Source: Bacteroidota bacterium (GTDB lineage: Bacteria > Bacteroidota > Bacteroidia > AKYH767-A > OLB10). Taken from it: DNA of 64,000 nt. The stretch covers positions 11,726 to 75,725 of the forward strand of contig JAHEYP010000014.1 in the NCBI GenBank assembly GCA_023251535.1, in the 5' to 3' direction. The notes below the pieces were generated by a model. The model was not told the origin of the DNA. It saw only the letters and a list, made by a program, of their open reading frames with translations, and ran no database searches. Positions 1,240 to 56,098 of this stretch are shown one piece after another. The position numbers and the translations under genes are program-made. The first letter of the stretch is position 1. Every line of letters starts with the position of its first letter.

Positions 1240-1518
1240 TTGACCATTACTTTTTAAGAGGCGTTAAATGCAAATTGCGAGGGAGCAGAATATGCAGTTT
1301 GTTGGTTTAAATCAAAATTTAAATTAAAATATATCGAGAGGTCACTCTGCGAGTTTTAATTTATTTCATTCATTAAATTAATATATATATTCATAAAATA
1401 TATTATTTAGTGTATTCGTATTTTCATGTATTCTATTAACATTGATATGTAGATAAGTGCATCACTCACGGTGTGCATTAACGAAGTCATGTGACGTAGC
1501 TTTGAGAAACTCCGGTAC

Positions 1519-4185
1519 ATGAAACGTGTTGTTAGCTCATCGATTATTTCAGTTGTCATCCTTTTGTTGGTGGCAGGTGGGTTTCTATACTATCAATATT
1601 ACCGTGGTGAGTCGTCGAAAGCCTTCGAGGCAGTTCCATCTGACGTAGCGTGGTTGATCTCAGTTGATCCTTCATCAGGGAACTTACAACAGTTAGCACG
1701 CACTGGATTTTTTAAGGAGCATGATTCCGTTCCTGTTCTTGATTCATGGTACAAAAGTTTGATTCGTCTCGATTCGGTGATGGTGAACAATAAAGTGATG
1801 AAGGATATTTTTAAGGATAGTCCTTTAATCATCTCAGGACATGTTACCGGTCCAAATAGCTTTAGCGAGTTGTTTTATATCCGCCTAGTGGGTGCCAATC
1901 CCGATGGCGAAGCCGATGAATTAGTAAAAGCATTACTGCATTCTACCGATGATATTCAACTAAGAAACTATAACGGGGTTGATATTCGCGAAATGACTAC
2001 TAGTGATCGTCAGACATTTTCGTGGACGGTTTCAAAAGGGATGTTTATTGGAAGCTATACTCCATATTTAGTAGAAGATGCCATACGTCAGCAGCGTTCA
2101 GCTAAGAGTCCTTCGCCTGCTTTGCGTTTGCTTCCTTTCACAGAAGGAAAAGAAAAGAGTTTATTGGTTGCGATTCGTTACTCAGGATTTTACAAGTGGG
2201 TAAGTTCGCAATTGAATGTCCAGGCAGGCATAAAAATGGATGCTTTACAGAGAGTAGGGGATTGGTCGATAGCTAAAATGGATTTGCATCCTAACCAAAT
2301 CACCTTTCAAGGTACAACGATCGTAAACGACAGTATTCAATTTTTATCGTTGTTTAGTGAGCAGAAAAGCGTTCCTATTAAAGTTACTTCGATCATGCCA
2401 TCACGTACGGCTGCAGCGGTAGTATGGGGAATTAGTGATCCTCAATTATGGTTAACGAACCTTGAGACCTATTTAAATCGCAATGCATCGGGTCCTGATG
2501 AGATAAAACGTAATGCAGGATATCGCAAATATTTTTCTGGATGGATGGGCAATGAAATTTCACTTATTGTGACTCAGCCTGTATCGACTGGAAACGACAA
2601 TCATTACTTTACTGCTATCAGTGTAAAAAACGAAGCTGTTTGTAAGAAACAATTGAGTGATTTATCGGCAACCGTTGCTGGTAGTACCAATGCTGAAGAA
2701 TCATATAACGGCAATGCTATACGTTATATTCCTGTTCCCGATGTGCTTCCTTCAGTTTTCGGGCCTTTATTCGGACGCATGAATCGTTGTTATTATACTA
2801 TCATTAATGGATACTTCCTTGCATCTAATCAAGTCTCGTCGCTAAGAGGTTATATTAATGACATAAAGACTAACAACCTCTTAAATTCTGATCCTCGTTT
2901 CTCTTCATTGGTAAGTGCTGTTCCTCAGCAAGGAAGTTTATTCTTTTATGGTAGTATACCTCAAAGTGAAAAAATATTCAGAAGCGTTGCAGCTCCTCAA
3001 TGGGTAAGCTGGTTAGCGAAATACAGTGAGAAATTGAAGAGCTGGAATGGACTCGTATTAAATATTGCAAGTAAAGACGGTGTATTTAATACCAATGGCT
3101 GTTTAGGATATTATGATGATGGAGTAAAAGGTCCACATTTAGTATGGAATACGAAGTTGGATACAACTATTGCAGCGGGTCCATTTATTCCTGTTAAAGA
3201 AGGTGATTTAATCTTTGCGCAAGATGAGCGTTTGCAATTATATGCTATAGGAAGGGATGGAGTAGTGAAATGGAAGAAAACCTTAGAAAGTACGATAAAG
3301 GGAAGCGTTAATGCAATAGATATGTATGGTGCAGGTGATCACCAATACCTTTTCAATACGGGTTCGTTTATTTATCTACTTGATTCGACCGGCGCTAATG
3401 TTGGGAATTATCCGATTCGATTGCCAGCAGGTGCGTCAGCAGGAATGTCGTTGCTACCATTAAATCCTTCTGTAAACGGACAATTCTTTATTCCATGTTC
3501 CAACATGCGTTTATATGGGTATTCTTATACTGGGAAGCCATTAGAAGGCTTTAGCACCGTTAAATTGCAAGATGTAGTACAGATGCCAGTTTGGTTATCA
3601 ACGTTAAATGGAGTTAGTTATTTAACGATAAATGATAAATCGGGAACTTGCTTCTTTGCCGATAAAAAAGGTGATCGAAAATTCACGCTAAAGGAAAAGT
3701 TAGTGGACATAAAAGAGAGTGCCATTTTCGCACCTGCTGATACATTAAGCTTATTCATGTTTTCACAAAATGGAGCAGTGAAGGTTGCTAAGGCTGATGG
3801 CATAACAGCTGATTTATTTATTACGGAGCAAACAGATATTTCTTCAATATTACCTATTGATGTTAATGGAGATAATGAAAATGACTTTTTGGTTTTCAAG
3901 CCGGGTGAAATTCAAGCAACAACTGCTGATGGTGTTGTGATTTTTAAATACAAAACCGATGCAGGAGAGTTGACTGATGCATCCATTTTAACATTACAAG
4001 GTAAGTCGTTAATTACTTTCCGCGGAGTGACCGACAACCGTTTTTACCTCTTAAACAGAAACGGAACGGTATACGAAGGTTTCCCTCAAGCAGGTATCAG
4101 TATACCGATAATTGTATCGGATAGTGAAATGATGTTTGTTGTGAAGTCGGATGAAAAAAGCTTGAGTTTATATCAAGTAGATTAA
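1519..4185 (+). CDS. Large (888 aa) membrane-anchored hypothetical protein with beta-propeller-like repeats
   Basis: Single N-terminal TM helix (IISVVILLLVAGGFLYY); long soluble domain with repeated G-rich/aromatic blades; no enzymatic motif recognised. Confidence 0.55.
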   Translation: MKRVVSSSIISVVILLLVAGGFLYYQYYRGESSKAFEAVPSDVAWLISVDPSSGNLQQLARTGFFKEHDSVPVLDSWYKSLIRLDSVMVNNKVMKDIFKDSPLIISGHVTGPNSFSELFYIRLVGANPDGEADELVKALLHSTDDIQLRNYNGVDIREMTTSDRQTFSWTVSKGMFIGSYTPYLVEDAIRQQRSAKSPSPALRLLPFTEGKEKSLLVAIRYSGFYKWVSSQLNVQAGIKMDALQRVGDWSIAKMDLHPNQITFQGTTIVNDSIQFLSLFSEQKSVPIKVTSIMPSRTAAAVVWGISDPQLWLTNLETYLNRNASGPDEIKRNAGYRKYFSGWMGNEISLIVTQPVSTGNDNHYFTAISVKNEAVCKKQLSDLSATVAGSTNAEESYNGNAIRYIPVPDVLPSVFGPLFGRMNRCYYTIINGYFLASNQVSSLRGYINDIKTNNLLNSDPRFSSLVSAVPQQGSLFFYGSIPQSEKIFRSVAAPQWVSWLAKYSEKLKSWNGLVLNIASKDGVFNTNGCLGYYDDGVKGPHLVWNTKLDTTIAAGPFIPVKEGDLIFAQDERLQLYAIGRDGVVKWKKTLESTIKGSVNAIDMYGAGDHQYLFNTGSFIYLLDSTGANVGNYPIRLPAGASAGMSLLPLNPSVNGQFFIPCSNMRLYGYSYTGKPLEGFSTVKLQDVVQMPVWLSTLNGVSYLTINDKSGTCFFADKKGDRKFTLKEKLVDIKESAIFAPADTLSLFMFSQNGAVKVAKADGITADLFITEQTDISSILPIDVNGDNENDFLVFKPGEIQATTADGVVIFKYKTDAGELTDASILTLQGKSLITFRGVTDNRFYLLNRNGTVYEGFPQAGISIPIIVSDSEMMFVVKSDEKSLSLYQVD

Positions 4186-4197
4186 GCACTTAAAAAA

Positions 4198-4506
4198 TTA
4201 CATTGCATCGAAACACTTATAAAGTGTATTGATGAATTTCTGTTCCGCTTTAGCTTCATATTCATCGGGGGTAATCCATGATTTATCGGAAATGGATTTA
4301 ATGTCGAGTGAAGTTTGCGTGTCTGAAACAGGCTTAATTTCTAATTCGATTTTAATCGATGGTTTTAAAAGTTTTTTCTTGGTACTTGCCTTTATGATAC
4401 CAGTGTTTTGGTCCATTTCCTCAATAATAAAGTCGCGCTTAACTAGCGCTTTCAAACTCACCTTGTAGACTGAGTTTGAGTCGTAGAAGAAAGATATTTT
4501 GCTCAT
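4198..4506 (-). CDS. Small hypothetical protein (about 102 aa from MSKISFFYD)
   Basis: ORF lies between the upstream gene end and the OmpA-gene terminator; a plausible start is the internal Met of the tracked ORF; no family recognised. Confidence 0.3.
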   Translation of the reverse strand: MSKISFFYDSNSVYKVSLKALVKRDFIIEEMDQNTGIIKASTKKKLLKPSIKIELEIKPVSDTQTSLDIKSISDKSWITPDEYEAKAEQKFINTLYKCFDAM

Positions 4507-4604
4507 AAAGAAATTGCCCTGAAACAAATGTAACAAACTAAGTTCAACATATCAACAACAAAAAATAATATTTGTTTCTTTCAAATGAAACAGGGAACGT
4601 TTGA

Positions 4605-4650
4605 AAAGAAAAAATCCCGAGACAATTGAATGTCCCGGGATTTTTATTTT
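4605..4650. terminator. Bidirectional hairpin terminator (about 10-bp stem, one mismatch) flanked by an A-run and a T-run
   Basis: atcccgagac...gtcccgggat with gaaaagaaaaaa upstream and tttttatttt downstream; lies just 3' of the minus-strand OmpA-family gene. Confidence 0.5.
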
Positions 4651-4674
4651 AAGCTTTTCAGCTAAATTCTTGAA

Positions 4675-6174
4675 TTATTTTTGATCAACAGCGAAATCAA
4701 CGCGGCGATTCATAGCGTTCAACTTGCTAGCCATAGGATCTTTTTCTCCTTTACTTTCAGTTGTTAAGCGAGCTGCATCGATACCAAATTCGCTTACTAA
4801 GATTTTCTTCACGTTTTCTGCGCGACGTAGTCCTAGTTTTTGATTTTCGTTATCACCACCTTTCACATCGCAATTACCAGTAATAGTAATTTTAAGATCT
4901 GGGTTAGCCTTCATTACTTTAGCGATTACTAAGATACGATCGTGGTAGATATTTTTAACTCCAGCATTTCCTAAATCGAAGAATACGCTAGGTAAGAATC
5001 CTGTTCCGTTTTTACCGTTAGATCCAGATCCTGAAAGACCATCTTTACCAAATTCACCTGGTTTAGCTAAAGTAATACCTTGGAAGTTTACCAATGAACC
5101 TTGAGGAGTTCCTGGTTCTAAGTCGCGGCTATCAGCAACACCGTCACCATCAGTATCAGTTTCAGCACCATTTGCATCAACTTTAGCTCCTTTAGCAGTA
5201 AACGGATCAGCATCTTTACTGTCAATTACACCATCACCATCAGTGTCAACTGCAGTTCCGTCGCCATATACTTTCGCACCTTCCGGTGTATTATTGTCTT
5301 TGTCGAATAAGTCAGATACTCCGTCTTTGTCTTTATCTCCTGAAAGGATATCGATTTTCTCTTTCATGTCGGCAAGGTCGTTGTAAACAACTTCCATAGG
5401 GTTAACCCATTCCATCGGTTTGTTTTTCTTACCGAATGTATAGTTTACACCTGCTGTTAACATTAAGTAGTTATCGTATTCAGAGAAAGTTTTTACTGTA
5501 GCATCTACATTATCGGTGAAGGATTTTCTATATTCAAAAGCCATTCCTACATCAACTTTGTTGATTTTGTATTTAAATCCTAATGAAACAGGTACCATTA
5601 ATTCAGTAATGTTACCAGATTCACGAAGTATTCGGCTTCCTACAGAATCTTCCTTTACAGTTGCATCGAAATTGAATAATCCAATACCTAATGTGGCTAC
5701 CATATGAAAATTCTTATTTCTATCGAGGAAACTGATATTTCCAAAGTTATAAGTCATTTCTAATGAGCTTTCAAACATTTTACTTTCCATTACTTCACTG
5801 ATAGGATAAGTAGAAGAGTGATTAGATCCTCCAATAGAAACTGGTTGATTTGTTAATGTATCGAGATAATCAGCATCTCTTGCTCCAAATTTCGAAACGA
5901 TTCCGCGAGCACGTAATCCGATTGAGTGAGTTAATTGGTAGTGTACTTGGGCACCAAAAGCAGGCTTCATTTCAGCTTGCTCTAGGAAACGATTGTTATT
6001 TTGTTTGCCTTTCAAAAGGTCGCCTAACAAGTGACTAACGCCAACTGTTACTCCTGCCGATAAACGGTCGTATTCCTTCGTTTTTGGTAGTCCGTAATTC
6101 GTGTTGCCCGACTGCGCAAACAACTGTCCGCCGAAACATACTAACAGGACAAGTGGTAAGTGCTTGATTTTCAT
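4675..6174 (-). CDS. OmpA-family outer-membrane protein with thrombospondin type-3 (calcium-binding) repeats
   Basis: C-terminal OmpA domain (NCDVKGGDNENQKLGLRRAENVKKIL...NRRVDFAV); multiple DTDGDGV.DS.D repeats; signal peptide starts at the internal Met MKIKHLPLVLLV. Confidence 0.8.
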   Translation of the reverse strand: MKIKHLPLVLLVCFGGQLFAQSGNTNYGLPKTKEYDRLSAGVTVGVSHLLGDLLKGKQNNNRFLEQAEMKPAFGAQVHYQLTHSIGLRARGIVSKFGARDADYLDTLTNQPVSIGGSNHSSTYPISEVMESKMFESSLEMTYNFGNISFLDRNKNFHMVATLGIGLFNFDATVKEDSVGSRILRESGNITELMVPVSLGFKYKINKVDVGMAFEYRKSFTDNVDATVKTFSEYDNYLMLTAGVNYTFGKKNKPMEWVNPMEVVYNDLADMKEKIDILSGDKDKDGVSDLFDKDNNTPEGAKVYGDGTAVDTDGDGVIDSKDADPFTAKGAKVDANGAETDTDGDGVADSRDLEPGTPQGSLVNFQGITLAKPGEFGKDGLSGSGSNGKNGTGFLPSVFFDLGNAGVKNIYHDRILVIAKVMKANPDLKITITGNCDVKGGDNENQKLGLRRAENVKKILVSEFGIDAARLTTESKGEKDPMASKLNAMNRRVDFAVDQK

Positions 6175-6272
6175 TAATATCGTGTTTTTTGGTGATTTGA
6201 TAGTGCAATAATAAATAAAAGTTGGATAAATGACCACATTTCAGCGCTTTAAGTGGCTGATTAATGCATTTT

Positions 6273-6926
6273 TCATCCCAAATCAGGCTTGATTCTTTGT
6301 AAGCCTTTAGGGTGGGAATTTTGAACAAGTTCAAGTAAATACCTCAAATGAGCTGGTTCTTCTACGAAATCGAGATCATCACTTTCAACAATAATTACAG
6401 AATCTGAAGGACTATGCTTTAGATGATGCAAGTACTGACCAGTAACTTTATCGAGATACTCACCTGGGATCGATTTCTCATAATCTCGTCCGCGTTTGGC
6501 AATATTGCTAAGTAAAGCAGGGGTCGTTTTATGAAGGTAAAGTATTAACTCAGGTTTATTTAACGATTGATTAATCATCATGAAAAATCGTCGGAATAAG
6601 TCCAATTCATGATTACTCAAATTTACTTGCGCAAAAAGCATCGATTTCTCGAAGATATAATCACTAATTAATAAATTATTCTGAGCAGTGCTTAATTCTT
6701 GTTGTGATTTTAATTGCTGATATCGTTCTGCTAAAAATGACATTTCTAGAGGGAATGCAAATCGCTCAGGATTTTCATAAAATTGAGGCAGAAAAGTATT
6801 GTCGGCGAATTCTTCTAATGCTAAATCGGCATTGAATTTAGTCGACATAATTTTAGCCAATGAAGTTTTTCCTGCTCCAATGTTTCCTTCTATGGCAATA
6901 TACGAATATGGTAAAGAGGTGTTCAT
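6273..6926 (-). CDS. Deoxynucleoside kinase (dAK/dGK/dCK family)
   Basis: P-loop IAIEGNIGAGKTSLAK and the overall dNK-family layout. Confidence 0.8.
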   Translation of the reverse strand: MNTSLPYSYIAIEGNIGAGKTSLAKIMSTKFNADLALEEFADNTFLPQFYENPERFAFPLEMSFLAERYQQLKSQQELSTAQNNLLISDYIFEKSMLFAQVNLSNHELDLFRRFFMMINQSLNKPELILYLHKTTPALLSNIAKRGRDYEKSIPGEYLDKVTGQYLHHLKHSPSDSVIIVESDDLDFVEEPAHLRYLLELVQNSHPKGLQRIKPDLG

Positions 6927-6928
6927 GG

Positions 6929-7420
6929 TTAAGGTTGACTAAATAGCTTTACTTCACTTTGATCGTTGCATAAATCTAATAATTCAATATTACTTTTTTT
7001 TACTATCGGATGAATGTAATCGGCAGCAATATCACATAATGGCACTAACGTAAATCGTCGGTTGGCGATTTCAGGATGAGGAACGGTAAGATTTGTTGTA
7101 ATAATGACTTCCGTGTTGAAATATAAAATATCGAGGTCGATGGTTCTTGGGCCCCATTTCTCGTGCCTTACTCGCCCCAATTTTAATTCAGCTTCCAGTA
7201 AAATATTTAGCAGCGCTTCGGGAGAATGTGGCGTTGTGATTTTAATTACTTTATTCAGGAAGGAAGATTGATTGGTATTTCCCCAGGCTGCAGTTTCATA
7301 AACTTTTGATACTGCAGAAATTATACCTGCATTAGTTGCAATTAAGGCTTCTGCATCTAACAGCATTTTCATCCTGTCGCCAAGATTACTTCCCGATAAA
7401 ATGTAAGCAGTAGATTGCAT
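6929..7420 (-). CDS. folK: 2-amino-4-hydroxy-6-hydroxymethyldihydropteridine pyrophosphokinase (HPPK)
   Basis: AYILSGSNLGDR...GPRTIDLDIL motifs typical of HPPK; 2-nt gap to the deoxynucleoside kinase gene. Confidence 0.85.
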   Translation of the reverse strand: MQSTAYILSGSNLGDRMKMLLDAEALIATNAGIISAVSKVYETAAWGNTNQSSFLNKVIKITTPHSPEALLNILLEAELKLGRVRHEKWGPRTIDLDILYFNTEVIITTNLTVPHPEIANRRFTLVPLCDIAADYIHPIVKKSNIELLDLCNDQSEVKLFSQP

Positions 7421-7543
7421 AATGCAAAAGTAAGATTCGATTTCTTTTTTTAGATTTGTACAGCTGTTTATTTTAGCCTTCCAACAGTTAATGATATTAG
7501 TTTATTCATTTATAGCCATATTACTTATTAACATTCAAAGTAT

Positions 7544-8056
7544 TTGAAAAAGTCATTGTCGGGCATATTTTTGGTGATTCTCCTTCTTCAAGGAGGCGGA
7601 TTTATGCTGCTATTACTTTTTCAACAACAGGCACTTAAATCCGAAATTCATTCGAAGATGAATCGTGGTGAGGTTGATTTCGAACAGATCGTTTTATCAA
7701 AAGCCGATTATCAAAAAGCTTTGGTCGAAGAAGGGGAGATTCTTATTGATGGAAAATTGTTTGATATTCAAAGTGAAACCATCATTCATAATAAAATTGT
7801 TTTAAGTGTTGTTTTTGATGAGAAGGAAGATGATGTTGTAAATGAAATTAAAAGCTTCATTCGAAGGAATTGCAGAAGTAATAAGTCTCTTCCCGATACT
7901 AGTGCGCATTTGTTTTCGTTAAGTTTTATCGGCACTACATATGCTTATTTTGTTCCTCTTTCATTTTCTTGTGAATTATATTCTTTGAGAAGTAAAATAT
8001 TTTTCTCTTGTCCTTCTTCTGAGGTTTTTACTCCTCCACCTCAGTTAATCGCTTAA
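7544..8056 (+). CDS. Hypothetical protein with an N-terminal hydrophobic segment
   Basis: ORF only; lies upstream of the TonB-dependent receptor gene. Confidence 0.35.
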   Translation: MKKSLSGIFLVILLLQGGGFMLLLLFQQQALKSEIHSKMNRGEVDFEQIVLSKADYQKALVEEGEILIDGKLFDIQSETIIHNKIVLSVVFDEKEDDVVNEIKSFIRRNCRSNKSLPDTSAHLFSLSFIGTTYAYFVPLSFSCELYSLRSKIFFSCPSSEVFTPPPQLIA

Positions 8057-45764: not shown

Positions 45765-46193
45765 ATGGAGAATTTAACCGATATTAAATGTCCGAAGTGC
45801 CAGTCCTATAGGGTCATTAAAAGTGGAATTGTTAATAGTAAACAGCGCTTTTGTTGTAAGAATTGCAGTTATTATTTTACGGTTGATAAGCTGGGCAAGC
45901 GTATCGATTCATATTATGTGACCAAAGCTCTGCAGTTGTATATCGAAGGACTTAGCTCTCGAGAAATTGAACGTTTGTTAGGTATTAGTCATGTTTCTGT
46001 AATGAATTGGGTGAAGCAATATGGTTTGAAACGTCCGGTGAATAGTCAGTATCATCCAAGCTATAAAGTTTTGAATCATTCCGAGTTGGTGGAGTATATG
46101 AGTAAAAAGGAGAATCTTAGTGGTGCAGGATCGGTAATTACTGAGTTGGGTGATAAGTTTATGTTGATTAAATGGGAGCGGTTTAGATCCTGA
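45765..46193 (+). mobile_element. Truncated IS1-family transposase remnant (InsA-like zinc finger + HTH; no DDE/InsB part)
   Basis: CPKCQSYRVIKSG...FCCKNCSYYF zinc ribbon followed by HTH LSSREIERLLGISHVSVMNWV; the ORF ends after 142 aa and no catalytic ORF follows. Confidence 0.55.
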
Positions 46194-46348: not shown

Positions 46349-47767
46349 ATGAAAAAAAATCTATTAACTATTGCCGGTGTTTGCTGTCTGTTGTTAAATG
46401 CATTCGTAGCTTCTGCTCAAGGAGGCGAAGGTTATGGCAGCGGAATCAAAATAAATTTGGATACCACCGGTACCCGATTTATTCGAATTATAAATTGGCA
46501 CCAAGTCTGGGTTCGATATAATGAAAACAATCCCGGTAGTACTGCTAATGGTGAGGCTTCAAATAGTCAAGTTGATTTCGCTATTCGTCGCTCTCGTTTT
46601 TTATTCATGACGCAAATTAGTCCGAAGTTTTTAGTAGTAACTCACTTTGGTATCAATAATCAAACCTTATTAAGCGGGGGCGCTTCGGGACAAGGAGCTG
46701 CCGGTACTGATGGTAAAAAACCTCAATTGTTTTTACACGACCTATGGGCTGAATATGCCATCAAAAAAGAGGTGATGTATTTCGGTGCAGGGTTGAATTA
46801 CTGGCAGGGTCCTTCCCGAAAAGCGAATGCAAGTACACTAAATTTCATGACGCTCGATGCACCGATTCATAATTGGTATAATATCGATGCTACAGATCAA
46901 TTCGGACGTTATCCAGGTATGTATATCAAAGGAAAAATCCTAAAAAGCAGAAAGCTTGATTATCGCTTAGCATTGAACTTTCCTTTTGCTATGCCTGCTG
47001 CAAATGCGCTCACAAAACTTGATACAACTGCTGCTAAAAACAATAAAGTAATAGCTTCTTATCGTGGTTTAGGAATGCAAAAAACAATGACTACAGGATA
47101 TATCATGTATCAGTTTAAGGAGAAAGAAAGTAATGTTCTTCCTTATACTGTCGGTACTTATTTGGGTTCAAAAAAAGTTATCAATGTAGGATTCGGAGGA
47201 AGCTATACTCCTGAAATGATGTGGGCACTTCAGAAAAATTCTTCTACAGGAAAATTAGATACAGTTCGTCAAGATCAACTGCTTTTGGCTGCCGATTTTT
47301 TCATGGACCTGCCGCTTAATAAAAGTAAAGGAACCGCAGTTACTTTGTATGCTTCTGCTCAGTATTGTAATATGGGCGATAACTTCGTTCGTTTAGTGGG
47401 ATTATCGAATCCTACTAATGGATTGAATTCGGAAAGCACTTATTCGGGGACTGGCAATAATGTTCCTGTTGTTGGTACCGGTACAATCATGTACGCTGAA
47501 GCAGGTTATCTTTTTCCTGCAACAAAAATCGGGAAATTTCAACCTTATGTTGCTTGTAACTATGCACAATATGATCGGATATCCGATGCCGTTATGATTA
47601 ATGATGTTGGTGTAAATTACTTAGTGAATGGCCATCATGCAAAAATTACACTCAATTATCGCTCTCGCCCTTATTTCGATTATAAAGATCCAGCTGTTAA
47701 ATATGGTGATATCGTGAAGAAGGGAAATAAGAGTGAAATTACTATGCAATTCCAAGTTTACTTGTAG
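46349..47767 (+). CDS. Outer-membrane beta-barrel porin-like protein
   Basis: Signal peptide MKKNLLTIAGVCCLLLNAFVASAQ; alternating amphipathic strands; C-terminal ...FQVYL. Confidence 0.55.
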   Translation: MKKNLLTIAGVCCLLLNAFVASAQGGEGYGSGIKINLDTTGTRFIRIINWHQVWVRYNENNPGSTANGEASNSQVDFAIRRSRFLFMTQISPKFLVVTHFGINNQTLLSGGASGQGAAGTDGKKPQLFLHDLWAEYAIKKEVMYFGAGLNYWQGPSRKANASTLNFMTLDAPIHNWYNIDATDQFGRYPGMYIKGKILKSRKLDYRLALNFPFAMPAANALTKLDTTAAKNNKVIASYRGLGMQKTMTTGYIMYQFKEKESNVLPYTVGTYLGSKKVINVGFGGSYTPEMMWALQKNSSTGKLDTVRQDQLLLAADFFMDLPLNKSKGTAVTLYASAQYCNMGDNFVRLVGLSNPTNGLNSESTYSGTGNNVPVVGTGTIMYAEAGYLFPATKIGKFQPYVACNYAQYDRISDAVMINDVGVNYLVNGHHAKITLNYRSRPYFDYKDPAVKYGDIVKKGNKSEITMQFQVYL

Positions 47768-47794: not shown

Positions 47795-49360
47795 ATGTCA
47801 GAACAAGCATTTAAAAAGACAATACGTAGTGTAATTGCCGCAAGCTCGGTGGGTACACTTATCGAATGGTACGATTTCTACATCTTTGGTAGTTTGGCTA
47901 CAATCATTTCTACACAGTTTTTCCCTGATGATAAATCTTCAGCTGCGTTACTTTCTACTTTAGCAATATTTGCCGCCGGCTTTATTGTGCGCCCTTTTGG
48001 TGCATTAGTATTTGGACGTTTAGGCGATATGATTGGGCGTAAGTATACTTTCTTGTTAACCCTTGTATTAATGGGCGGATCTACTTTCGCTATCGGATTA
48101 ATACCTACTTATAAAACAATTGGTGTTGCCGCTCCTTTGTTGGTGCTATTGCTTCGCCTCATTCAAGGTTTAGCTCTTGGTGGTGAATATGGTGGTGCTG
48201 CTACTTATGTCGCCGAACATGCTCCTGCTGGTAAAAGAGGATTCTATACCAGCTGGATTCAAACTACAGCAACTCTAGGATTATTCCTTTCATTAGGTGT
48301 GATCCTTACTACAAGAACTACCCTGGGCGTAGAAACATTTAACGATTGGGGATGGAGAATTCCTTTTCTCGTTTCTTCAATCTTGGTTGTAGTTTCCATC
48401 TACATCCGCATGAAGATGCATGAGTCGCCAATGTTTACTAAACTTAAAAAAGAAGGAAGGATTTCTACTAATCCTTTGAAAGAAAGTTTTGGTAAGAAGG
48501 AAAATCTTAAGATGGTTTTATTGGCTTTATTTGGTGCAGTTATGGGACAAGGAGTAATTTGGTATACTGGACAATTCTATGCTCAATCATTCATCGAAAA
48601 TACTTGTAAAGTCGATTTCGCTCAGTCACGGACAATGTTACTTTGGGCTATTGCTTTCGCAACTCCTTTCTTTGTGGTGTTTGGTAGTTGGAGTGATAGA
48701 GTAGGACGTAAATGGATTATGTTAGGAGGGATGTTCCTCGGATTGATTTCTTACCGTAGTATCTATCAAGAGTTGTTGGATGTAACTAACGATAAAAACA
48801 AAGTGGAAGTTGTTGCTGAAAAAACACAATCTTACGAATCAAAACTCGTAACAGGAACTGCTGATTCATTAACCAAAACGATCACTATTCGTAAGTTTGA
48901 AGATGGTGCTGTGTTCAAGGAGACTAAAACAGATACTTTATATGCTGAAGTAGGTAAAGTTACTATAAAACCAACCATTAAAATGGAAAAGACTTTGGGT
49001 AATCATGATTACCGCTGGATGATTTTCTTGGTGTTTATTCAAATCATTTTTGTTACGATGGTATATGGTCCTATTGCTGCCTTCCTCGTAGAAATGTTCC
49101 CAACGCAAATTCGTTATACTTCAATGTCACTGCCATACCATATTGGTAATGGTGTCTTCGGAGGATTGGTACCGTTTATATCAACTCTAATTATTGAGTA
49201 CACTAAAACACCTGATAATCCCGCAGGACAACCTTTAGCAGGGTTGTGGTATCCAATGTCAGTTGCTGCTATCTGTTTAATTATAGGAGTCTTTTATCTG
49301 AGCAATAAAATTGATCAGAATGTAAAAGATGAAGAAAATGCTTACATCCACCATCAATAA
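47795..49360 (+). CDS. MFS transporter, metabolite:H+ symporter (MHS) family, KgtP/ProP-like carboxylate permease with a ~95-aa inserted hydrophilic segment
   Basis: GTLIEWYDFYIFG, RLIQGLALGGEYGGAATYVAEHAPAGKRGFYTS and WGWRIPFL motifs parallel KgtP. Confidence 0.8.
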   Translation: MSEQAFKKTIRSVIAASSVGTLIEWYDFYIFGSLATIISTQFFPDDKSSAALLSTLAIFAAGFIVRPFGALVFGRLGDMIGRKYTFLLTLVLMGGSTFAIGLIPTYKTIGVAAPLLVLLLRLIQGLALGGEYGGAATYVAEHAPAGKRGFYTSWIQTTATLGLFLSLGVILTTRTTLGVETFNDWGWRIPFLVSSILVVVSIYIRMKMHESPMFTKLKKEGRISTNPLKESFGKKENLKMVLLALFGAVMGQGVIWYTGQFYAQSFIENTCKVDFAQSRTMLLWAIAFATPFFVVFGSWSDRVGRKWIMLGGMFLGLISYRSIYQELLDVTNDKNKVEVVAEKTQSYESKLVTGTADSLTKTITIRKFEDGAVFKETKTDTLYAEVGKVTIKPTIKMEKTLGNHDYRWMIFLVFIQIIFVTMVYGPIAAFLVEMFPTQIRYTSMSLPYHIGNGVFGGLVPFISTLIIEYTKTPDNPAGQPLAGLWYPMSVAAICLIIGVFYLSNKIDQNVKDEENAYIHHQ

Positions 49361-49372
49361 AATCACTTTGCT

Positions 49373-49600
49373 ATGTCACAGTTAAGGAAAATATTAGGCA
49401 TCGTATGGATGCTTCTAGGGCCGGCTACTATTATATTTTTAATCAGTCAGGCTTCGCATAAAATCTCTCAACCTACAAGTACAACAAACGATGTGCTGCA
49501 GTGGGGAATCATCATCACCATCTTTGTTCCAATAGCTATCGGACTGATGATATTCGGGTACTATGCCGTAAAAGGAGAGTACGCAGAAATAGAAGAATAA
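49373..49600 (+). CDS. Small 2-TM membrane protein, unknown function
   Basis: 75-aa ORF starting 13 nt after the MFS gene, with two hydrophobic helices. Confidence 0.4.
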   Translation: MSQLRKILGIVWMLLGPATIIFLISQASHKISQPTSTTNDVLQWGIIITIFVPIAIGLMIFGYYAVKGEYAEIEE

Positions 49601-49688
49601 ATTAGTAATTACAATCAGGCCGGTATCGTCGCAGGTCCGGCTTGGTTGTTCTTAATTTATTATGTTGAATTTTGTTTAAATTAGTGCA

Positions 49689-49880
49689 ATGAATAATAGG
49701 GTGTCGTTGAAGCTTGGCGTTTTAGCAGTAGTTGGTTTATTACTGTTCAATTTTCCGTTGCTGAAAACGGTTAATTCTGCTGCCTTTTCTTCGAATTTAC
49801 CGATGATGCCTATTTATTTGTTTGTTTGCTGGATTCTTTTTGTCGCCCTCATTTTTTTAATCGTAAGGAGAAAGATATGA
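49689..49880 (+). CDS. Small 2-TM protein translationally coupled to the sensor kinase (CbrX/DUF485-like)
   Basis: 63-aa ORF; its TGA stop overlaps the kinase ATG (ATGA at 49877-49880). Confidence 0.45.
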   Translation: MNNRVSLKLGVLAVVGLLLFNFPLLKTVNSAAFSSNLPMMPIYLFVCWILFVALIFLIVRRKI

Positions 49881-52579
49881 ATCCGGTGATATTATCGATC
49901 GTATTTGTAGCGTACTTGCTATTACTGTTTTTCATCGCCTTTAAAGCTGAAGGATGGAAGTGGAAGGGACGAAAGATTACTTCATTACCTTTAGTTTATG
50001 CTCTTTCCGTTTCGGTGTTTTGCACGGCGTGGACTTTCTATGGAAGCTTAGGATCTGCATCAACAGGTTCACTTAATTTCTTGGCGGTTTATTTGGGTCC
50101 AACCATTATGGCGCCTTTAGGGTTTTTATTACTTAAAAAATTAGTACGTGTTTGTAAATTACAACAAATAACTTCGTTAGCAGATTTGATCTCATCTCGC
50201 TATGGGAAAAATATTTCATTGGGTTCTATTGTTACTGTTTGTTGTTTTATAGGTATCGTACCTTATCTTTCTCTTCAGTTAAAAGCTATCTCCGAAAGTT
50301 TTAGGATTTTAGGAGGGTATTCGTTCGATTATAAAGGCGTTGATACAATTGCTCTTGTAATCTCTTTCGTCTTAATTGGTTTTACTGTATTGTTTGGGTC
50401 TCGTAAAACACTGACTAGCGAACAGCATAGTGGATTATTAGCAGCAGTAGCTTTTGAATCGATTGTTAAGTTATTTGTATTCCTTCTTGCAGGATTAATT
50501 ATTTCGTATTTGGCATGGAATTCGCTTTCTGTCGGATTGAATTCAGATAGAATTGTGTCGGGATTCGCTTCTTTTTTTAAGGAAAAAGAGCATAGTACTT
50601 TTAATTTTGGTGATTGGTTCTGGGTTGCTTTAATCTCTGGATTTGCTTCTATTTTATTGCCTCGAATGTTTCAAATTAATGTGGTTGAGAATGATTCTGA
50701 ACATAATCTTACGCATTCAGTATGGGTATTTCCTTTTTACCTTTTATTGATTAATATTTTTGTTTTGCCGATTGCTTATGCAGGTTATTTGTTTCTCGGG
50801 AACAATACTATAACAGATTATACTTTATTGCTGCTTCCTTTAAAGTATAATTTGCCTTGGTTGGCTGTTTTCGTTTTTATTGGTGGGATTTCAGCTGCTA
50901 CGAGCATGGTAATTGTAGAAACGATTGCATTGAGTACAATGTTTAGTAATAGTTTAGTAATTCCTTTTTTAGCTCGTCAAGCTAATAGTAATTCGAAGAT
51001 TTCTTCTATTGGAAACAGTACTTTGTTTATCCGGAAGTTCGGCGTGTTCTTTACTATTTTGTCGGCTTATTTGTATTATGAGTTTGTGAGTCATTATACA
51101 AGTTTGATTTCAATCGGATTAATTTCTTTTGTTTCTGTTGCTCAATTTGCTCCTTCAGTTTTTGGAGGATTATATTGGAAGTCAGGAAATAAATACGGTG
51201 CATTGTCAGGTATTATAATAGGGTTCGTTGTTTGGTTTTTTACACTCATCGTTCCTTCGCTCGCACAAAATAATATTTTAAGTCGCGATATAATTGATTA
51301 TGGTTTGTTTCATCTAGCTTGGCTTAAGCCAAATTCATTGTTTGGTCTCGATGGATGGGGTTCAATTGCACATGCTTCGTTTTGGTCACTGTTGTTTAAT
51401 TTTGGTTGTTATATTGTTGTTTCTGTGTGGACAAATCAAACAGAGGAAGAAAAAGCTCAAGCCGAATTATTTGTCGATATTTTCAAGTATTCTGAAGTGT
51501 ATGAGTCTTCGGTTGTTTATAAGGGTGTAGCTTATATTCCCGATGTGAAAGCTTTACTTGCGAACTTTGTAGGTGATGTTCGTGCCAATAACTTAATTAA
51601 CGCCTTTTCTAAACGCCATAAAATTGAAAATGATATTTCTGCAAAGGCAGATCCTCGTATGGTGGCTTTCGTTGAGCGTACATTAAGTGGAATCGTGGGA
51701 TCGGCATCATCTCGTTTAATGGTTGCTACTGTCGTTAAAGAGGAAGAAGTGAGCGTCCAAGAGTTGATGGGTGTACTAAAGGAATCGCAGAGCCTTATCG
51801 CTTTGAACAATGAATTGAAACGAAAAACAATTGAGTTGAATAATACTAAAAGTGATTTGGAGGATACAAATCGTAAGTTAATTCAGCTTGACGAATTGAA
51901 GGACGATTTTTTAACTACCGTAACTCATGAATTGCGTACTCCAATTACTTCTATTCGTGCATTTTCTGAAATTTTGTATGATAATCCTGATATGGAGATC
52001 GAAGATCGTCAACATTATACTAACATTATAACTCGCGAAACGGAACGTATTACTCGATTAATTGCTCAAGTTTTGGACTTAGAGAAATATGAATCGGGAC
52101 GGCAAAAATTGCACCTTACTCGATTTGATTTATATGATGTTGTTATAAGTGTTATTGAAGGTATGCAACAGCTGGTTGCTGAAAAGCAAATCAATATCAA
52201 TGTCACAGAATTTTCTCACTTAGTGATTGCTGATGAAGATAAAATTACACAAGTACTAATCAACTTAATTAGCAATGCAGTGAAATTTGTCCCTCAAAAC
52301 ACAGGAGAGATTTCTATCGAATGTTCATTAGTTAGTGGTATGATTAATTTAGTGGTATCTGATAATGGTAAAGGAATCGATCCTCAGTTTCATGAGTTGA
52401 TTTTCGATAAATTCTATCAAGCAGAAAATCAAACTATACGTAAACCGAAAGGTAGCGGATTAGGTTTAGCAATCTGCAAAAAAATTATGCAACTGCATGG
52501 CGGTGATATTTCGTTGAGAAGTATTCTTGGTCAGGGCAGTGAATTCACAATAATATTTCCAATTAATAGGGAGGTTTAG
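49877..52579 (+). CDS. Sensor histidine kinase with N-terminal sodium:solute symporter (SLC5/SSS) domain, CbrA/CrbS-like, no receiver domain
   Basis: N-terminus YALSVSVFCTAWTFYGSLGSA...SLADLISSRYG parallels the CbrA SSS domain (about 13 TM helices); coiled coil; HisKA H-box LTTVTHELRTPITSIRAFSEIL; HATPase_c (DNGKGIDP...GSGLGLAICK). Confidence 0.8.
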   Translation: MNPVILSIVFVAYLLLLFFIAFKAEGWKWKGRKITSLPLVYALSVSVFCTAWTFYGSLGSASTGSLNFLAVYLGPTIMAPLGFLLLKKLVRVCKLQQITSLADLISSRYGKNISLGSIVTVCCFIGIVPYLSLQLKAISESFRILGGYSFDYKGVDTIALVISFVLIGFTVLFGSRKTLTSEQHSGLLAAVAFESIVKLFVFLLAGLIISYLAWNSLSVGLNSDRIVSGFASFFKEKEHSTFNFGDWFWVALISGFASILLPRMFQINVVENDSEHNLTHSVWVFPFYLLLINIFVLPIAYAGYLFLGNNTITDYTLLLLPLKYNLPWLAVFVFIGGISAATSMVIVETIALSTMFSNSLVIPFLARQANSNSKISSIGNSTLFIRKFGVFFTILSAYLYYEFVSHYTSLISIGLISFVSVAQFAPSVFGGLYWKSGNKYGALSGIIIGFVVWFFTLIVPSLAQNNILSRDIIDYGLFHLAWLKPNSLFGLDGWGSIAHASFWSLLFNFGCYIVVSVWTNQTEEEKAQAELFVDIFKYSEVYESSVVYKGVAYIPDVKALLANFVGDVRANNLINAFSKRHKIENDISAKADPRMVAFVERTLSGIVGSASSRLMVATVVKEEEVSVQELMGVLKESQSLIALNNELKRKTIELNNTKSDLEDTNRKLIQLDELKDDFLTTVTHELRTPITSIRAFSEILYDNPDMEIEDRQHYTNIITRETERITRLIAQVLDLEKYESGRQKLHLTRFDLYDVVISVIEGMQQLVAEKQININVTEFSHLVIADEDKITQVLINLISNAVKFVPQNTGEISIECSLVSGMINLVVSDNGKGIDPQFHELIFDKFYQAENQTIRKPKGSGLGLAICKKIMQLHGGDISLRSILGQGSEFTIIFPINREV

Positions 52580-52581
52580 TT

Positions 52582-52944
52582 ATGTATAAAATATTGATTG
52601 CCGATGATGAGCCAAACATCCTTTTATCGCTTGAATTTTTAATGCGAAAAAGTGGATATAATGTGTTTATTGCTCGAAATGGCTCGGAAGCTATGGAAAT
52701 CATAAATCGTGATAAACCTCAGTTGGTGGTATTAGATATTATGATGCCGGATATTGATGGATATCAAATTTGCACTCATATCAAATCATCAAAAGAACTG
52801 TCAGATTGCAAAGTAGTATTTCTTTCCGCCAAGGCAAAAGAAGGTGATATTAAAAAAGGATTAGAAATTGGAGCGGATGCGTATCTGACAAAACCGTTTT
52901 CTACCCGTGTATTAATGCAAAAAATAAGTGAACTGTTAAAGTAA
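52582..52944 (+). CDS. Stand-alone CheY-like response-regulator receiver domain (no output domain)
   Basis: ILIADDEPN...VVLDIMMPDIDG...AYLTKPF; 120 aa; starts 3 nt after the kinase stop. Confidence 0.85.
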   Translation: MYKILIADDEPNILLSLEFLMRKSGYNVFIARNGSEAMEIINRDKPQLVVLDIMMPDIDGYQICTHIKSSKELSDCKVVFLSAKAKEGDIKKGLEIGADAYLTKPFSTRVLMQKISELLK

Positions 52945-52957
52945 AATTCATATCACC

Positions 52958-54880
52958 ATGACACCATATCGTCAATTATATCGTCGTAGTATTGAAAACC
53001 CTGAGGCTTTTTGGGGTGAGCAAGCATCGTTAATTAAATGGTTTAAATCGCCAGAGAATATTCTTTCTCGTGATGAAAAAGGACTTTATCGATGGTATAG
53101 TGATGGTGTAATGAATACTTGTTATTTAGCGGTCGATAAACATGTGGAAGAGGGCAGAGGTGATCAAGTTGCTTTGATTTATGATTCTCCCGTTACAAAG
53201 GTTGTAGAGAAGTTTACTTATAATGATCTGCAAAAAAATGTTTCTACGCTTGCTGGTGGATTGCAAAAATTAGGAGTACAAAAGGGTGATCGTGTTGTGA
53301 TTTATATGCCTTTAGTTCCCGAAGCTTTATTTTCAATGTTGGCTTGCGCTAGAATTGGAGCCGTGCATTCAGTGGTGTTCGGCGGATTCGCTCCACATGA
53401 ATTAGCTGTTCGTATTGATGATGCGCAACCGAAAGTAATAATTTCTGCTTCTTGCGGAATAGAAATCGATCGCGTGATTGCTTATAAGCCAATGCTCGAT
53501 GATGCAATTAGTAAATCGATTTTCAAACCTCAGCATACTGTGATTTTACAACGTCCTATGATGACCGCCGATATGTGGCCCGGTCGCGATGTTGATTATA
53601 ATGAATTGGTGCAAAATTCCCCTTCTGCAGATTGTGTTCCATTAAATGCGAATGATCCTCTTTATATTCTTTATACGAGTGGAACAACAGGTAAACCGAA
53701 AGGAATATTACGCGATAATGGAGGTCATGCTGTAGCATTACGTTTTAGCATGGATCATATTTATAATGTTAAAGCCGGTGATGTGTTCTGGGCTGCAAGT
53801 GATGTGGGTTGGGTTGTAGGACATAGCTATATGGTTTATGGTCCTTTGTTGCAAGGCTGCACTACATTGCTCTATGAAGGAAAGCCTGTCCGCACTCCCG
53901 ATGCAGGAGCTTTCTGGCGAGTTGTGGAACAACATAAAGTGAATATTCTATTTACTGCTCCAACTGCATTCCGTGCTATTAAGAAAGAAGATCCCGAAGG
54001 TGAGTTGCTTCACAAGTATGATATTTCTTCATTGCATCGTTTGTATTTGGCAGGTGAACGTTGTGATGTCCCAACTTGGTATTGGGCTACTGAAATGTTG
54101 AAAGTTCCTGTTGTTGATCATTGGTGGCAAACAGAAAGCGGATGGCCTATCGTGGCTCAAATGCCTTCTATTGAGGAACATCTTTTATTGAAGCCTGGCT
54201 CTGCAGGTAAACCGATTCCGGGATATAAAATTGATGTGCTTAATGAAGAGGGTGAATTATTGATTCCTAATCAAGAGGGATTTGTTGCAATCAAATTACC
54301 TCTTCCTCCCGGATGCTTACCTGATTTGTACAACGATACTGATCGTTTCATTTCATCCTACCTTGAGAAATTCCCTGGTTACTATTTAACAGGTGATGGC
54401 GGATATAAGGATGAAGAGGATTATGTTTATATTATGGGTAGAGTTGATGATGTGATTAATGTCGCAGGACATCGATTATCTACCGGTGAAATGGAGGAGA
54501 TGGTGGCAGCTCATCCGTTCGTTGCAGAATGTGCTGTAGTTGGCATAGCCGACGAATTAAAAGGTCATCTTCCTCTTGCTTATGTTGTAGTTAGAGATGG
54601 TGTTGTGCCCAACGAATTACTTATCGAAAAGGAATTAGTAAAGTTGATTCGTGATAATATCGGAGCCGTTGCTTGTTTTAAAAATTGTGTTCTCGTTAAG
54701 CGCTTGCCAAAAACGCGATCAGGGAAAATTCTTCGACGCTTACTTCGAAATATCGCCGATGGTGAACATTATATTGTTCCAAGTACTATCGATGATCCTC
54801 TAATTTTAACAGAGGTTCATGATGCACTAAAGGCCCGCCGTATAGGGCAGGCCTTCATAGGTGTGGTGGATGATGAGTAA
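52958..54880 (+). CDS. prpE: Propionate--CoA ligase (PrpE; acyl-CoA synthetase, Acs-like)
   Basis: N-terminus and core (YRRSIENPEAFWGEQA..., LACARIGAVHSVVFGGFA, YTSGTTGKPKG, ...PKTRSGKILRR, C-terminal IDDP...) track PrpE closely. Confidence 0.7.
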   Translation: MTPYRQLYRRSIENPEAFWGEQASLIKWFKSPENILSRDEKGLYRWYSDGVMNTCYLAVDKHVEEGRGDQVALIYDSPVTKVVEKFTYNDLQKNVSTLAGGLQKLGVQKGDRVVIYMPLVPEALFSMLACARIGAVHSVVFGGFAPHELAVRIDDAQPKVIISASCGIEIDRVIAYKPMLDDAISKSIFKPQHTVILQRPMMTADMWPGRDVDYNELVQNSPSADCVPLNANDPLYILYTSGTTGKPKGILRDNGGHAVALRFSMDHIYNVKAGDVFWAASDVGWVVGHSYMVYGPLLQGCTTLLYEGKPVRTPDAGAFWRVVEQHKVNILFTAPTAFRAIKKEDPEGELLHKYDISSLHRLYLAGERCDVPTWYWATEMLKVPVVDHWWQTESGWPIVAQMPSIEEHLLLKPGSAGKPIPGYKIDVLNEEGELLIPNQEGFVAIKLPLPPGCLPDLYNDTDRFISSYLEKFPGYYLTGDGGYKDEEDYVYIMGRVDDVINVAGHRLSTGEMEEMVAAHPFVAECAVVGIADELKGHLPLAYVVVRDGVVPNELLIEKELVKLIRDNIGAVACFKNCVLVKRLPKTRSGKILRRLLRNIADGEHYIVPSTIDDPLILTEVHDALKARRIGQAFIGVVDDE

Positions 54881-54883
54881 AAA

Positions 54884-55400
54884 TTATTGAATCGCAACTC
54901 GACTTTGATATAATCCTTTGTCGGTTGTTACATTGATAATGTAAATGCCTTTAGCGAACAAACTCTTGTCGAAGCTAACTGTTGATTCTTGATTCTGTAT
55001 TTCTGTAATTAAACTTCCGTTGCTGTTGAAAATTTGTGCCGATTCAATTTTGGTTGAGTTCATGGCAACTATTTCAATGCTGTTTGCAAGATTCTTAACA
55101 ACTAGATTATTGCTGTTGCTGATTTCTTGTATTCCAACGCCATTAACAATTACCGGTGCAGATGTCGCCGGACAACCAATCGAGTCTACAATTGTAACAG
55201 TGTATGTTCCGTTTTGTGTTGCAGTATATGATTGATTTGTTCCTGTTACTATCGGCTGACCATTATAGTTCCATTGGTAAGTTGTTGCTGAAGTTGACGT
55301 TAATACGGCACCGTTAGTAGTAATAATAGGAGTTAATGATCCTTGATAGAAAGGAACGTTAGTTGATAGTGATCCTGATGTTAATGTTCCCGCATTTCCA
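54884..55400. repeat. Near-identical (>95%) direct repeat, copy 1 (3' half of the LamG/T9SS gene)
   Basis: Aligns at offset +1220 to 56104-56620 with only scattered SNPs. Confidence 0.8.
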
Positions 55401-56098
55401 CTTGTTGTTTGATCAGGAATATTAGTTCCGCTTGCTACATTAAAGTTCCAATACCCCACTAACCCCGGTGATGTTGGTGAAATATGACGATTGTATCCTG
55501 CTAAAATTTCAGAACGTGATAAAGCTCGATCCCAAATTCTGGCTTCATCAATTTGTCCACTGAAAAATCTACTTGGTGTTCCACTTCCTTCCGACCATCT
55601 TCCTATACATAATGGAAATGCTGTTGATGGAACTATCGATCCTCTAAATGCAGTAGCCCCAACTTCAATTGTGTTTAGGTAGATTTTTAAACTGTCGCCG
55701 TCATAAACTCCCGCAACATGTTGCCAAGTGTTTAGCGAAAGTGTGTTAATAGGACTTATTATTTCTTTCCATGTTGCCACTAATCCTGAACTGTCGGTGC
55801 CTGCAATTGCAAATGATAATTGCCCCATTCCACCACATCTAATTACATAACCTTGCTTTCCTTGGCTAGAACTGTGTTTGCATATAATGGAATTTGTAAA
55901 CGACGAAGTCCCGAAAGTTGATGGTTTAATCCATGCTTCTAAGGTTACTGTACTATCAAGTGATAAATTGGTGCTATTTACAAAGGAAACATAGCCTGAA
56001 GTTCCACCCAATAAAATCGATTTTGTATTGGCAGTGCATTGTGCATTACAATTTACATAAATTGAGCATAACAATACTAAGGTTGCAAGATGTTTCAT
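54884..56098 (-). CDS. T9SS-secreted LamG (concanavalin-like) domain protein, downstream copy of a tandem paralog pair
   Basis: Signal peptide; LamG-like jelly-roll domain; Ig-like domain; T9SS C-terminal domain (...GIYIINVTTDKGLYQSRVAIQ). Confidence 0.65.
   Translation of the reverse strand: MKHLATLVLLCSIYVNCNAQCTANTKSILLGGTSGYVSFVNSTNLSLDSTVTLEAWIKPSTFGTSSFTNSIICKHSSSQGKQGYVIRCGGMGQLSFAIAGTDSSGLVATWKEIISPINTLSLNTWQHVAGVYDGDSLKIYLNTIEVGATAFRGSIVPSTAFPLCIGRWSEGSGTPSRFFSGQIDEARIWDRALSRSEILAGYNRHISPTSPGLVGYWNFNVASGTNIPDQTTSGNAGTLTSGSLSTNVPFYQGSLTPIITTNGAVLTSTSATTYQWNYNGQPIVTGTNQSYTATQNGTYTVTIVDSIGCPATSAPVIVNGVGIQEISNSNNLVVKNLANSIEIVAMNSTKIESAQIFNSNGSLITEIQNQESTVSFDKSLFAKGIYIINVTTDKGLYQSRVAIQ

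Follow-up and report, generated by a model that had tools for sequence, protein, structure and literature searches.

For transporter-kinase "transceptors", a single small partner protein has been described, CbrX. In Pseudomonas putida, the cbrX gene comprises 58 codons and overlaps cbrA by 17 nt, and CbrA production requires the translation of cbrX but not a particular peptide sequence (PMC6591292). When cbrX was frameshifted and then restored, so that its peptide was altered, CbrA was still produced (PMC6591292). In a cryo-EM structure published in 2026, CbrX forms a hairpin whose two termini lie in the cytoplasm and which packs against TM3 and TM8 of the SLC5 domain of CbrA (PMC13488458). 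Although bound to CbrA, CbrX was dispensable in the sole phenotype tested, growth on histidine (PMC13488458). Both CbrX and the CbrAB system have been described as confined to Pseudomonadaceae (PMC8871633, PMC6591292), and in the literature that we searched we found no description of a wider CbrX-like family.

Here, we analysed 64,000 nucleotides of a Bacteroidota contig (JAHEYP010000014.1), referred to below as the window, in which a small open reading frame (ORF) lies at the start of a sensor kinase gene. We compare this locus with cbrX and with other small membrane proteins that accompany transporter-like partners.

RESULTS

A conserved 63-codon ORF overlaps the start of a sensor kinase gene

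In the reading frames of the window, the small ORF runs on the + strand from the ATG at 49689 to the TGA at 49878-49880 and encodes a protein of 63 aa, MNNRVSLKLGVLAVVGLLLFNFPLLKTVNSAAFSSNLPMMPIYLFVCWILFVALIFLIVRRKI. The start is unambiguous because an in-frame stop lies only three codons before the ATG. An earlier note on this DNA had placed the stop codon of the ORF within the ATG of the kinase gene, and the sequence ATGA is indeed found at that place. The features concerned are the following.

49689..49880, + strand: small ORF, predicted CbrX-like helical-hairpin membrane protein and probably first cistron of the kinase operon (matched by its own family profile at E 1.3e-26)
49743..49832, + strand: best-conserved segment of the small ORF, residues 19-48, comprising the end of helix 1, the loop and the start of helix 2 (family alignment)
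49877..49880, + strand: ATGA junction, at which the kinase start overlaps the small-ORF stop by 4 nt (window sequence)
49877..52579, + strand: SLC5-STAC sensor histidine kinase, 900 aa (HisKA and HATPase_c in Pfam, and a match to CbrA)

The length of the small ORF is no evidence on its own, because 38 ORFs of at least 40 aa, mostly spurious, are listed in 10 kb. A word-indexed protein search with the small ORF returned three close relatives. When 1.84 billion cluster representatives were searched exhaustively with phmmer, 73 proteins (E <= 1e-3) were detected that aligned nearly end to end. Nearly all of these relatives are 61-93 aa long, with a single one of 205 aa. In an alignment of 40 family sequences, P23, P38 and W48 do not vary, Y43 and F45 hardly vary, and the family motif reads LLFNxPLL ... 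GxPxLYxYLFxxW. Comparison of the small ORF with the three close relatives, which come from four contigs and are 88-95% identical to it at the protein level, revealed 13-17 synonymous and 3-7 non-synonymous differences. The resulting pN/pS was 0.07-0.13 between the window and its relatives and reached 0.17 between the relatives themselves. Judging from these comparisons, the small ORF is a genuine, strongly conserved gene. Conservation at the level of amino acids, taken together with this selection, argues that the peptide itself, beyond its translation, is under selection.

Of 10 Bacteroidota loci annotated by gene callers, 5 lack a call for the small ORF (L081, L203, L206, L208 and L210). On the contig of L081, which is identical to the window, the uncalled small ORF is located at 5804-6004. 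Where such proteins were called, misleading names occur: one is listed as 'ABC-type protease/lipase transport system...', and PDB chain 10ed_X bears the name 'MFS transporter'.

The encoded protein contains two hydrophobic stretches, at approximately residues 9-25 and 39-59. Its termini are basic (R4 and K8 at one end; R60, R61 and K62 at the other), and acidic residues are absent. AlphaFold2, supplied with the family alignment, placed helices at residues 3-19, 22-30 and 39-62 with a mean pLDDT of 80.9. The protein is therefore modelled as a two-helix membrane hairpin of CbrX-like size (about 58-65 aa), with both termini predicted to be cytoplasmic. On the basis of the positive-inside rule and the topology of CbrX in the cryo-EM structure (PMC13488458), the conserved segment (residues 19-48) is predicted to face the periplasm. 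When the hairpin model was compared with the PDB by Foldseek, no match at E <= 0.001 was obtained; the database extended to April 2026, and the CbrXA entry was possibly absent from it. A scan also reported a terminator-like site at 49755-49770, which lies inside the small ORF and is regarded as a chance occurrence.

The partner kinase resembles CbrA in its sensor half

Translation from the ATG at 49877-49879 yields a kinase of 900 aa that can be aligned with its homologues from residue 1. For the identical protein P0004, gene callers chose the same ATG. An in-frame TTG at 49826 was considered as an alternative start and rejected because the homologues align from the ATG at 49877. The SLC5-like and STAC regions occupy approximately residues 1-625, followed by HisKA at 675-741 and HATPase_c at 786-896. 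In Pfam, HisKA and HATPase_c were the only domains detected; neither a PAS nor a receiver domain was found, and just about 50 residues separate STAC from HisKA. Residues 8-531 of the kinase matched residues 12-506 of the CbrA chain 10ed_A at E 6.9e-65. Moreover, positions 4-622 of the kinase family profile matched residues 8-590 of the CbrA SLC5-STAC construct (10ed_A) at E 4.7e-101. On this sequence evidence, the sensor half of the kinase is homologous to that of CbrA, and the protein is an SLC5-STAC histidine kinase.

The small ORF and the kinase gene occur together in both directions of search

We employed a forward test in which the small-ORF family profile was run against the six-frame ORFs of 80 loci fetched by kinase alignment. 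These loci had been chosen by kinase-core patterns, and about two-thirds of them contain unrelated kinases, which were used as negative controls. Each of the 26 full-length kinase loci for which upstream sequence was present yielded a profile match (E 1e-10 to 4e-23), always in an ORF immediately before the kinase gene and on its strand. These 26 loci come from Bacteroidota, Alpha-, Beta- and Gammaproteobacteria, Nitrospirota, Myxococcota and Desulfobacterota; those named include Flavobacterium, Cytophagaceae, Flavihumibacter, Aquimarina, Anaeromyxobacter and Desulfobulbaceae. Conversely, the profile found no match in about 50 loci that share the kinase core alone. Another 8-9 Bacteroidota loci, reached via exact-protein look-ups, all contain the small ORF, which gives 35 kinase loci altogether; L081 and L082 are the window's own sequence, and both carry it. 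Thus, no PAS-less orthologous kinase locus without the small ORF was encountered among the 35 examined, which bears out the expectation, also voiced in the earlier note, of a conserved small membrane protein at this place. In L025 (5627-5964) the small ORF is split across two frames, which points to a frameshift or a sequencing error.

For the reverse test, a hand-made degenerate DNA pattern built from the small-ORF motif alone was used to retrieve 120 metagenome loci. The N-terminus of an SLC5-STAC protein (profile positions 1-6 onward) followed just downstream in 112 of the 113 testable loci. The sole exception, L190 (about 7560-7860), contains a family member with no SLC5-STAC ORF within 964 nt downstream.

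A family member is also present in L211, plasmid 1 of Paracoccus denitrificans PD1222 (1275-7923). There, PDEN_RS25400 (81 aa, 'hypothetical protein' in RefSeq) matches the family at E 1e-16 and shares an ATGA overlap with the kinase gene PDEN_RS25405. The neighbours of this pair are a gene for a DUF294-type nucleotidyltransferase and a gene for an exonuclease-domain protein.

No member of the small-ORF family was found upstream of the kinase in the two loci examined that encode hybrid kinases of the CrbS type.

Pseudoalteromonas L024, 5986-9438: CrbS-type locus without the small ORF; kinase of 1150 aa, upstream genes encoding ribosomal proteins
S. fredii pNGR234b L212, 2941-6552: CrbS-type locus without the small ORF; kinase of 1203 aa

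Together, these searches identify the small ORF as a conserved partner gene of the PAS-less SLC5-STAC kinase subfamily.

The small-ORF family is probably a very divergent relative of CbrX

When the small-ORF profile was searched against the PDB (177,635 sequences), the best match was CbrX, chain 10ed_X, in two collinear stretches. The E value of 0.084 is not significant by itself. We took the CbrX sequence from this PDB alignment, collected and aligned its relatives, and compared the two families by hhalign. The search for CbrX relatives was word-indexed and non-exhaustive; among the best 120 of 193 matches, those with names belong to Pseudomonadaceae and close relatives. Comparison of the small-ORF and CbrX profiles gave a probability of 75.6% (E 2.4e-5, score 29.4, 50 columns), and a larger profile of 188 sequences gave 76.5% and a score of 28.7. 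The controls scored as follows.

Reversed CbrX alignment: score 12.4
200 full column shuffles: maximum 18.8
200 and 100 shuffles within segments (helix/loop): maxima 25.1 and 23.7, the real score never being reached
DUF6814, a real two-helix family of the locus: score 12.2, probability 0.4%

The real score thus lies above those of all 500 shuffles. In the alignment, G16, F20, P38, F45 and W48 of the family are paired with G13, F17, P35, Y36 and W39 of CbrX, each of which is invariant or near-invariant within the CbrX alignment. The identical genomic position beside homologous kinase domains reinforces this remote similarity. We consider it probable but unproven, from these profile comparisons, that the small ORF is a very divergent homologue of Pseudomonas CbrX. 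The parallel with cbrX that had been drawn earlier for this locus is thereby strengthened on two counts: the partner is homologous to CbrA, and the similarity to CbrX itself, while weak, is specific.

The overlap with the kinase gene is most common in Bacteroidota

All close relatives compared retain an ATGA junction identical to that of the window. The same junction occurs in L213, L215, L216, L004, L018, L007, L011, L203 and L207, as well as in PDEN_RS25400/25405 of Paracoccus. Among 13 Bacteroidota loci, the two genes overlap by 4-11 nt in 10: the gap is -4 nt in five loci, -8 nt in four (ATGAATAA/G) and -11 nt in one, the remaining values being +1, +2 and +19 nt, each seen once. We also determined the gap in 105 non-redundant metagenome loci, mostly of high G+C content, where the median was 21 nt.

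Overlap: 5/105 loci
Gap of 0-5 nt: 23/105 loci
Gap of 6-15 nt: 20/105 loci
Gap of 16-30 nt: 25/105 loci
Gap of 31-60 nt: 21/105 loci
Gap over 60 nt: 11/105 loci

The suggestion that the overlap would be conserved in orthologous loci thus holds for the close relatives and for most of the Bacteroidota, but not elsewhere. The different distribution outside Bacteroidota indicates that the gene pair is universal and that the overlap is a habit of particular lineages, above all of Bacteroidota. Because the genes are often 20-190 nt apart outside this phylum, coupling cannot be the general reason for the family's existence.

Initiation led by a Shine-Dalgarno sequence is generally weak in Bacteroidota. 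The sequence before the kinase ATG is rich in purines and in A and could allow independent initiation. Folding of the junction RNA gave no significant structure by which coupling could be enforced (z -0.71). From the geometry of the junction and the experiments in P. putida (PMC6591292), we infer that in the window the overlap couples translation of the kinase to that of the small ORF.

The locus probably serves the use of short-chain carboxylates

The small ORF and the kinase gene are embedded in a cluster with the following further features.

45765-46193, + strand: Zn-ribbon/HTH protein, 142 aa, with an InsA-like zinc ribbon, at the head of the cluster (domain scan)
46349-47767, + strand: porin-like protein
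47795-49360, + strand: MFS metabolite/H+ symporter
49373-49600, + strand: DUF6814 small two-helix membrane protein, 75 aa, 12 nt after the MFS gene
49606..49654, + strand: strong, conserved hairpin with a T-rich stretch behind it, downstream of the DUF6814 gene and ahead of the small ORF (-27.5 kcal/mol, z -3.97, 0/200 shuffles)
52582..52944, + strand: stand-alone receiver-domain response regulator, 120 aa, without an output domain (Response_reg, 6.1e-30)
52958..54880, + strand: acetyl-/acyl-CoA synthetase (Acs), 640 aa (ACAS_N, AMP-binding, AMP-binding_C)

We compared 12 Bacteroidota loci. A receiver-only (REC) regulator directly follows the kinase in all 12, and also in Paracoccus. The acyl-CoA synthetase gene lies within the fetched stretch of 10 of the 12, usually directly after the receiver gene, and its product is the probable metabolic target of the system. 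The Zn-ribbon/HTH protein is conserved at the cluster head in 8/12 loci (E 1e-34 to 1e-76). Since the response regulator has no output domain, one may speculate that this protein is the DNA-binding output. The pair of MFS transporter and DUF6814 genes is likewise found in 8/12, and DUF6814 may be an uncharacterised small subunit of the transporter. The gene order that is kept is HTH, porin, MFS (or DUF4212+SSF), DUF6814, small ORF, kinase, REC, Acs; in this series the transporter module seems to be interchangeable, whereas small ORF, kinase, REC and Acs are constant. The neighbouring porin, carboxylate-type transporter (MFS or SSS) and Acs suggest that the system probably senses or controls the use of short-chain carboxylates, as CrbS/R does for acetate.

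Upstream of the small ORF, the intergenic region 49601-49688 differs from that of L213 at 4 of 88 nt, compared with a pS of 0.30 inside the small ORF. Two of the four changes fall in the stem of the hairpin at 49606-49654, and pairing is preserved. Sequence and predicted folding suggest that this hairpin is probably a terminator or attenuator, with a promoter following it. Given such a terminator-like element upstream, the small ORF is probably the first cistron of its own transcription unit. A scan for sigma-70 promoters, which does not cover those of Bacteroidota, found no promoter.

Some loci depart from or extend this arrangement. In Pontibacter (L205, 1445-3426), a pair of DUF4212 and SSF symporter genes replaces MFS and DUF6814. 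The same place in Aquimarina (L021, 3941-5731) is occupied by an ORF weakly similar to the kinase query (E 3e-06), possibly an SSS-type transporter. Downstream of the locus on the identical contig of L081, two tandem paralogues of 404 aa each combine Laminin_G_3 with Por_Secre_tail (type IX secretion); the corresponding paralogue region of the window is at 54884-56098 on the - strand and beyond.

The small ORF matches none of the known small-subunit families searched

The earlier note had recommended a search against DUF485 and DUF4212, the small membrane subunits of SSS transporters, and this idea found no support. Pfam and NCBIfam returned no family for the small ORF at E <= 1, and none of 40 family members matched DUF485 or DUF4212. 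A single one of these 40 matched DUF3311, at the chance level of E 0.41.

DISCUSSION

With a probability of roughly three in four, we interpret the small ORF as encoding a CbrX-type hairpin subunit of a PAS-less SLC5-STAC kinase, which would bind the SLC5 domain of the kinase and be translationally coupled to it. According to our model, the protein of 63 aa would form a hairpin in the inner membrane, with both ends in the cytoplasm and its best-conserved residues at the periplasmic turn. By analogy with the CbrX-CbrA complex seen by cryo-EM, the hairpin would be packed on the kinase's SLC5 domain and serve as an accessory subunit in stoichiometric ratio, and the conserved motif on the periplasmic face would be the surface of contact. 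The operon would read small ORF, kinase, receiver and probably acs. Ribosomes that finish translating the small ORF would re-initiate on the kinase, which would tie the production of the two proteins together. The locus as a whole would then act as a module for the uptake and activation of short-chain carboxylates of the acetate type. The notion of a small subunit for a transporter-like sensor domain, put forward before this analysis, most likely applies here, in so far as it agrees with the binding of CbrX to the SLC5 domain of CbrA (PMC13488458).

Other explanations have to be weighed against this model. That the ORF arose by chance in AT-rich DNA, or is a conserved non-coding regulatory leader of the kinase gene, could be argued from the many spurious ORFs of like length nearby and from its going uncalled on the identical contig and in four other orthologous loci. 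The sequence comparisons already refute this: conservation at the protein level spans phyla with 47-71% G+C, and synonymous changes are in excess within the ORF. A coding but purely mechanical role, in which the small ORF is a mere translational leader that brings ribosomes to the kinase start while its peptide has no function, has more to build on. It would account for the ATGA overlap, and it agrees with the 2019 conclusion that a cbrX gene with an altered peptide still allowed CbrA production (PMC6591292), as well as with the complementation of growth on histidine by a cbrAB operon that lacks cbrX (PMC13488458). However, it is hard to reconcile with the strong purifying selection on the amino acids (pN/pS 0.07-0.17) and with a specific peptide motif retained across phyla. 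Furthermore, the peptide is kept even in loci where 20-196 nt separate the two genes, which makes overlap coupling impossible, and the cryo-EM map shows CbrX bound to CbrA (PMC13488458). We consider a leader of this kind quite improbable.

If the peptide is functional, it might still belong to one of the subunit families of solute:sodium symporters, namely DUF485 (YjcH, with ActP), DUF4212 or DUF3311. The SSS/SLC5-like nature of the partner domain would fit, and the genuine DUF4212+SSF pair in the equivalent Pontibacter locus demonstrates that such pairs occur in this context. That very locus, however, contains the small ORF as a gene of its own besides the DUF4212 gene. Neither Pfam nor NCBIfam assigned the ORF to any family at E <= 1, and across the 40 relatives DUF485 and DUF4212 were never matched and DUF3311 once, by chance, which makes such a membership very improbable indeed. 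A closer contender is a kinase-associated hairpin that works like CbrX but has an independent origin. In its favour, resemblance to CbrX is marginal (E 0.084; about 76% probability in hhalign), CbrX has neither the NxPLL nor the LYxY element and its loop is shorter by six residues, and the absence of the small ORF beside CrbS-type kinases means that its presence is not universal among SLC5-STAC kinases. Against this, the hhalign score exceeds those of all 500 shuffles preserving composition or topology and that of a genuine control family with two helices, five of the best-conserved positions match those of CbrX, and position, strand, size and topology are equal to those of CbrX, beside homologous kinase domains. 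We therefore regard an analogue of independent origin as unlikely, and retain a divergent CbrX-type subunit as the preferred reading.

A bolder proposal is that the small protein is an obligatory third component of widespread PAS-less SLC5-STAC systems and that CbrX is a degenerate offshoot of it. We think this doubtful. If it were true, the invariant motif on the periplasmic side (N21, P23, P38, Y43, F45 and W48) would contact the SLC5 domain and act in ligand gating or in the dimer state of the kinase, and signal perception would need a complex of two proteins rather than the kinase alone.

What is new here is a probable CbrX-type partner in another phylum, beside a kinase of different architecture and with a motif of its own. 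The arrangement belongs to a large family that spans at least five phyla and has no Pfam or NCBIfam model, and its motif is defined far more clearly than the CbrX one. For interface prediction and co-variation analysis, about 150 natural sequence pairs are available, and genetically tractable hosts outside Pseudomonas are now on offer. The family also exposes an annotation gap, in that gene callers miss or misname the small ORF.

Compared with known systems, the locus shares some features with each and is identical to none. The DUF485 (YjcH)/ActP and DUF4212/SSF pairs likewise place the gene for a small membrane protein directly before a gene of the SSS fold. There is no detectable sequence relation to these proteins, and their partner is a stand-alone transporter, whereas that of the window is a sensor kinase; the likeness to ActP-type small subunits is an analogy only. 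DUF6814, too, is a small membrane protein of two helices whose gene accompanies that of a transporter, but it is placed after its partner while the small ORF stands before, and profile comparison finds the two unrelated. CrbS/CrbR (MxtR/ErdR), which activates acs, resembles the window in its SLC5-STAC sensor and in a locus tied to acetyl-CoA synthetase and carboxylate transporters. CrbS, however, is a hybrid kinase that measures about 1150-1200 aa, contains PAS and receiver domains and works with a LuxR-type regulator, the window kinase having 900 aa and none of these; unlike in the window, no small ORF precedes the kinase gene in the CrbS-type loci L024 and L212.

The closest counterpart is CbrX (PP_5704; 10ed chain X, 58 aa; Pseudomonas/Azotobacter). 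It is likewise a small two-helix membrane hairpin, a topology that the predicted cytoplasmic termini of the window protein would match. Its gene is also directly upstream of an SLC5-STAC kinase gene, on the same strand, and overlaps its start, and conserved G, F, P, aromatic and W positions coincide. The differences lie in the extent of the overlap (4 nt in the window versus 17 nt for P. putida cbrX), in the LLFNxPLL ... GxPxLYxYLFxxW motif, which CbrX mostly lacks, and in the loop, which is six residues shorter in CbrX. The partners differ as well: CbrA has the order SLC5-STAC-PAS-kinase and works with the sigma-54 activator CbrB, whereas the kinase of the window has no PAS domain and is followed by a regulator that consists of a receiver of 120 aa only. 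Finally, CbrX has been described as restricted to Pseudomonadaceae (PMC6591292, PMC8871633), whereas the family to which the window protein belongs spans many phyla.
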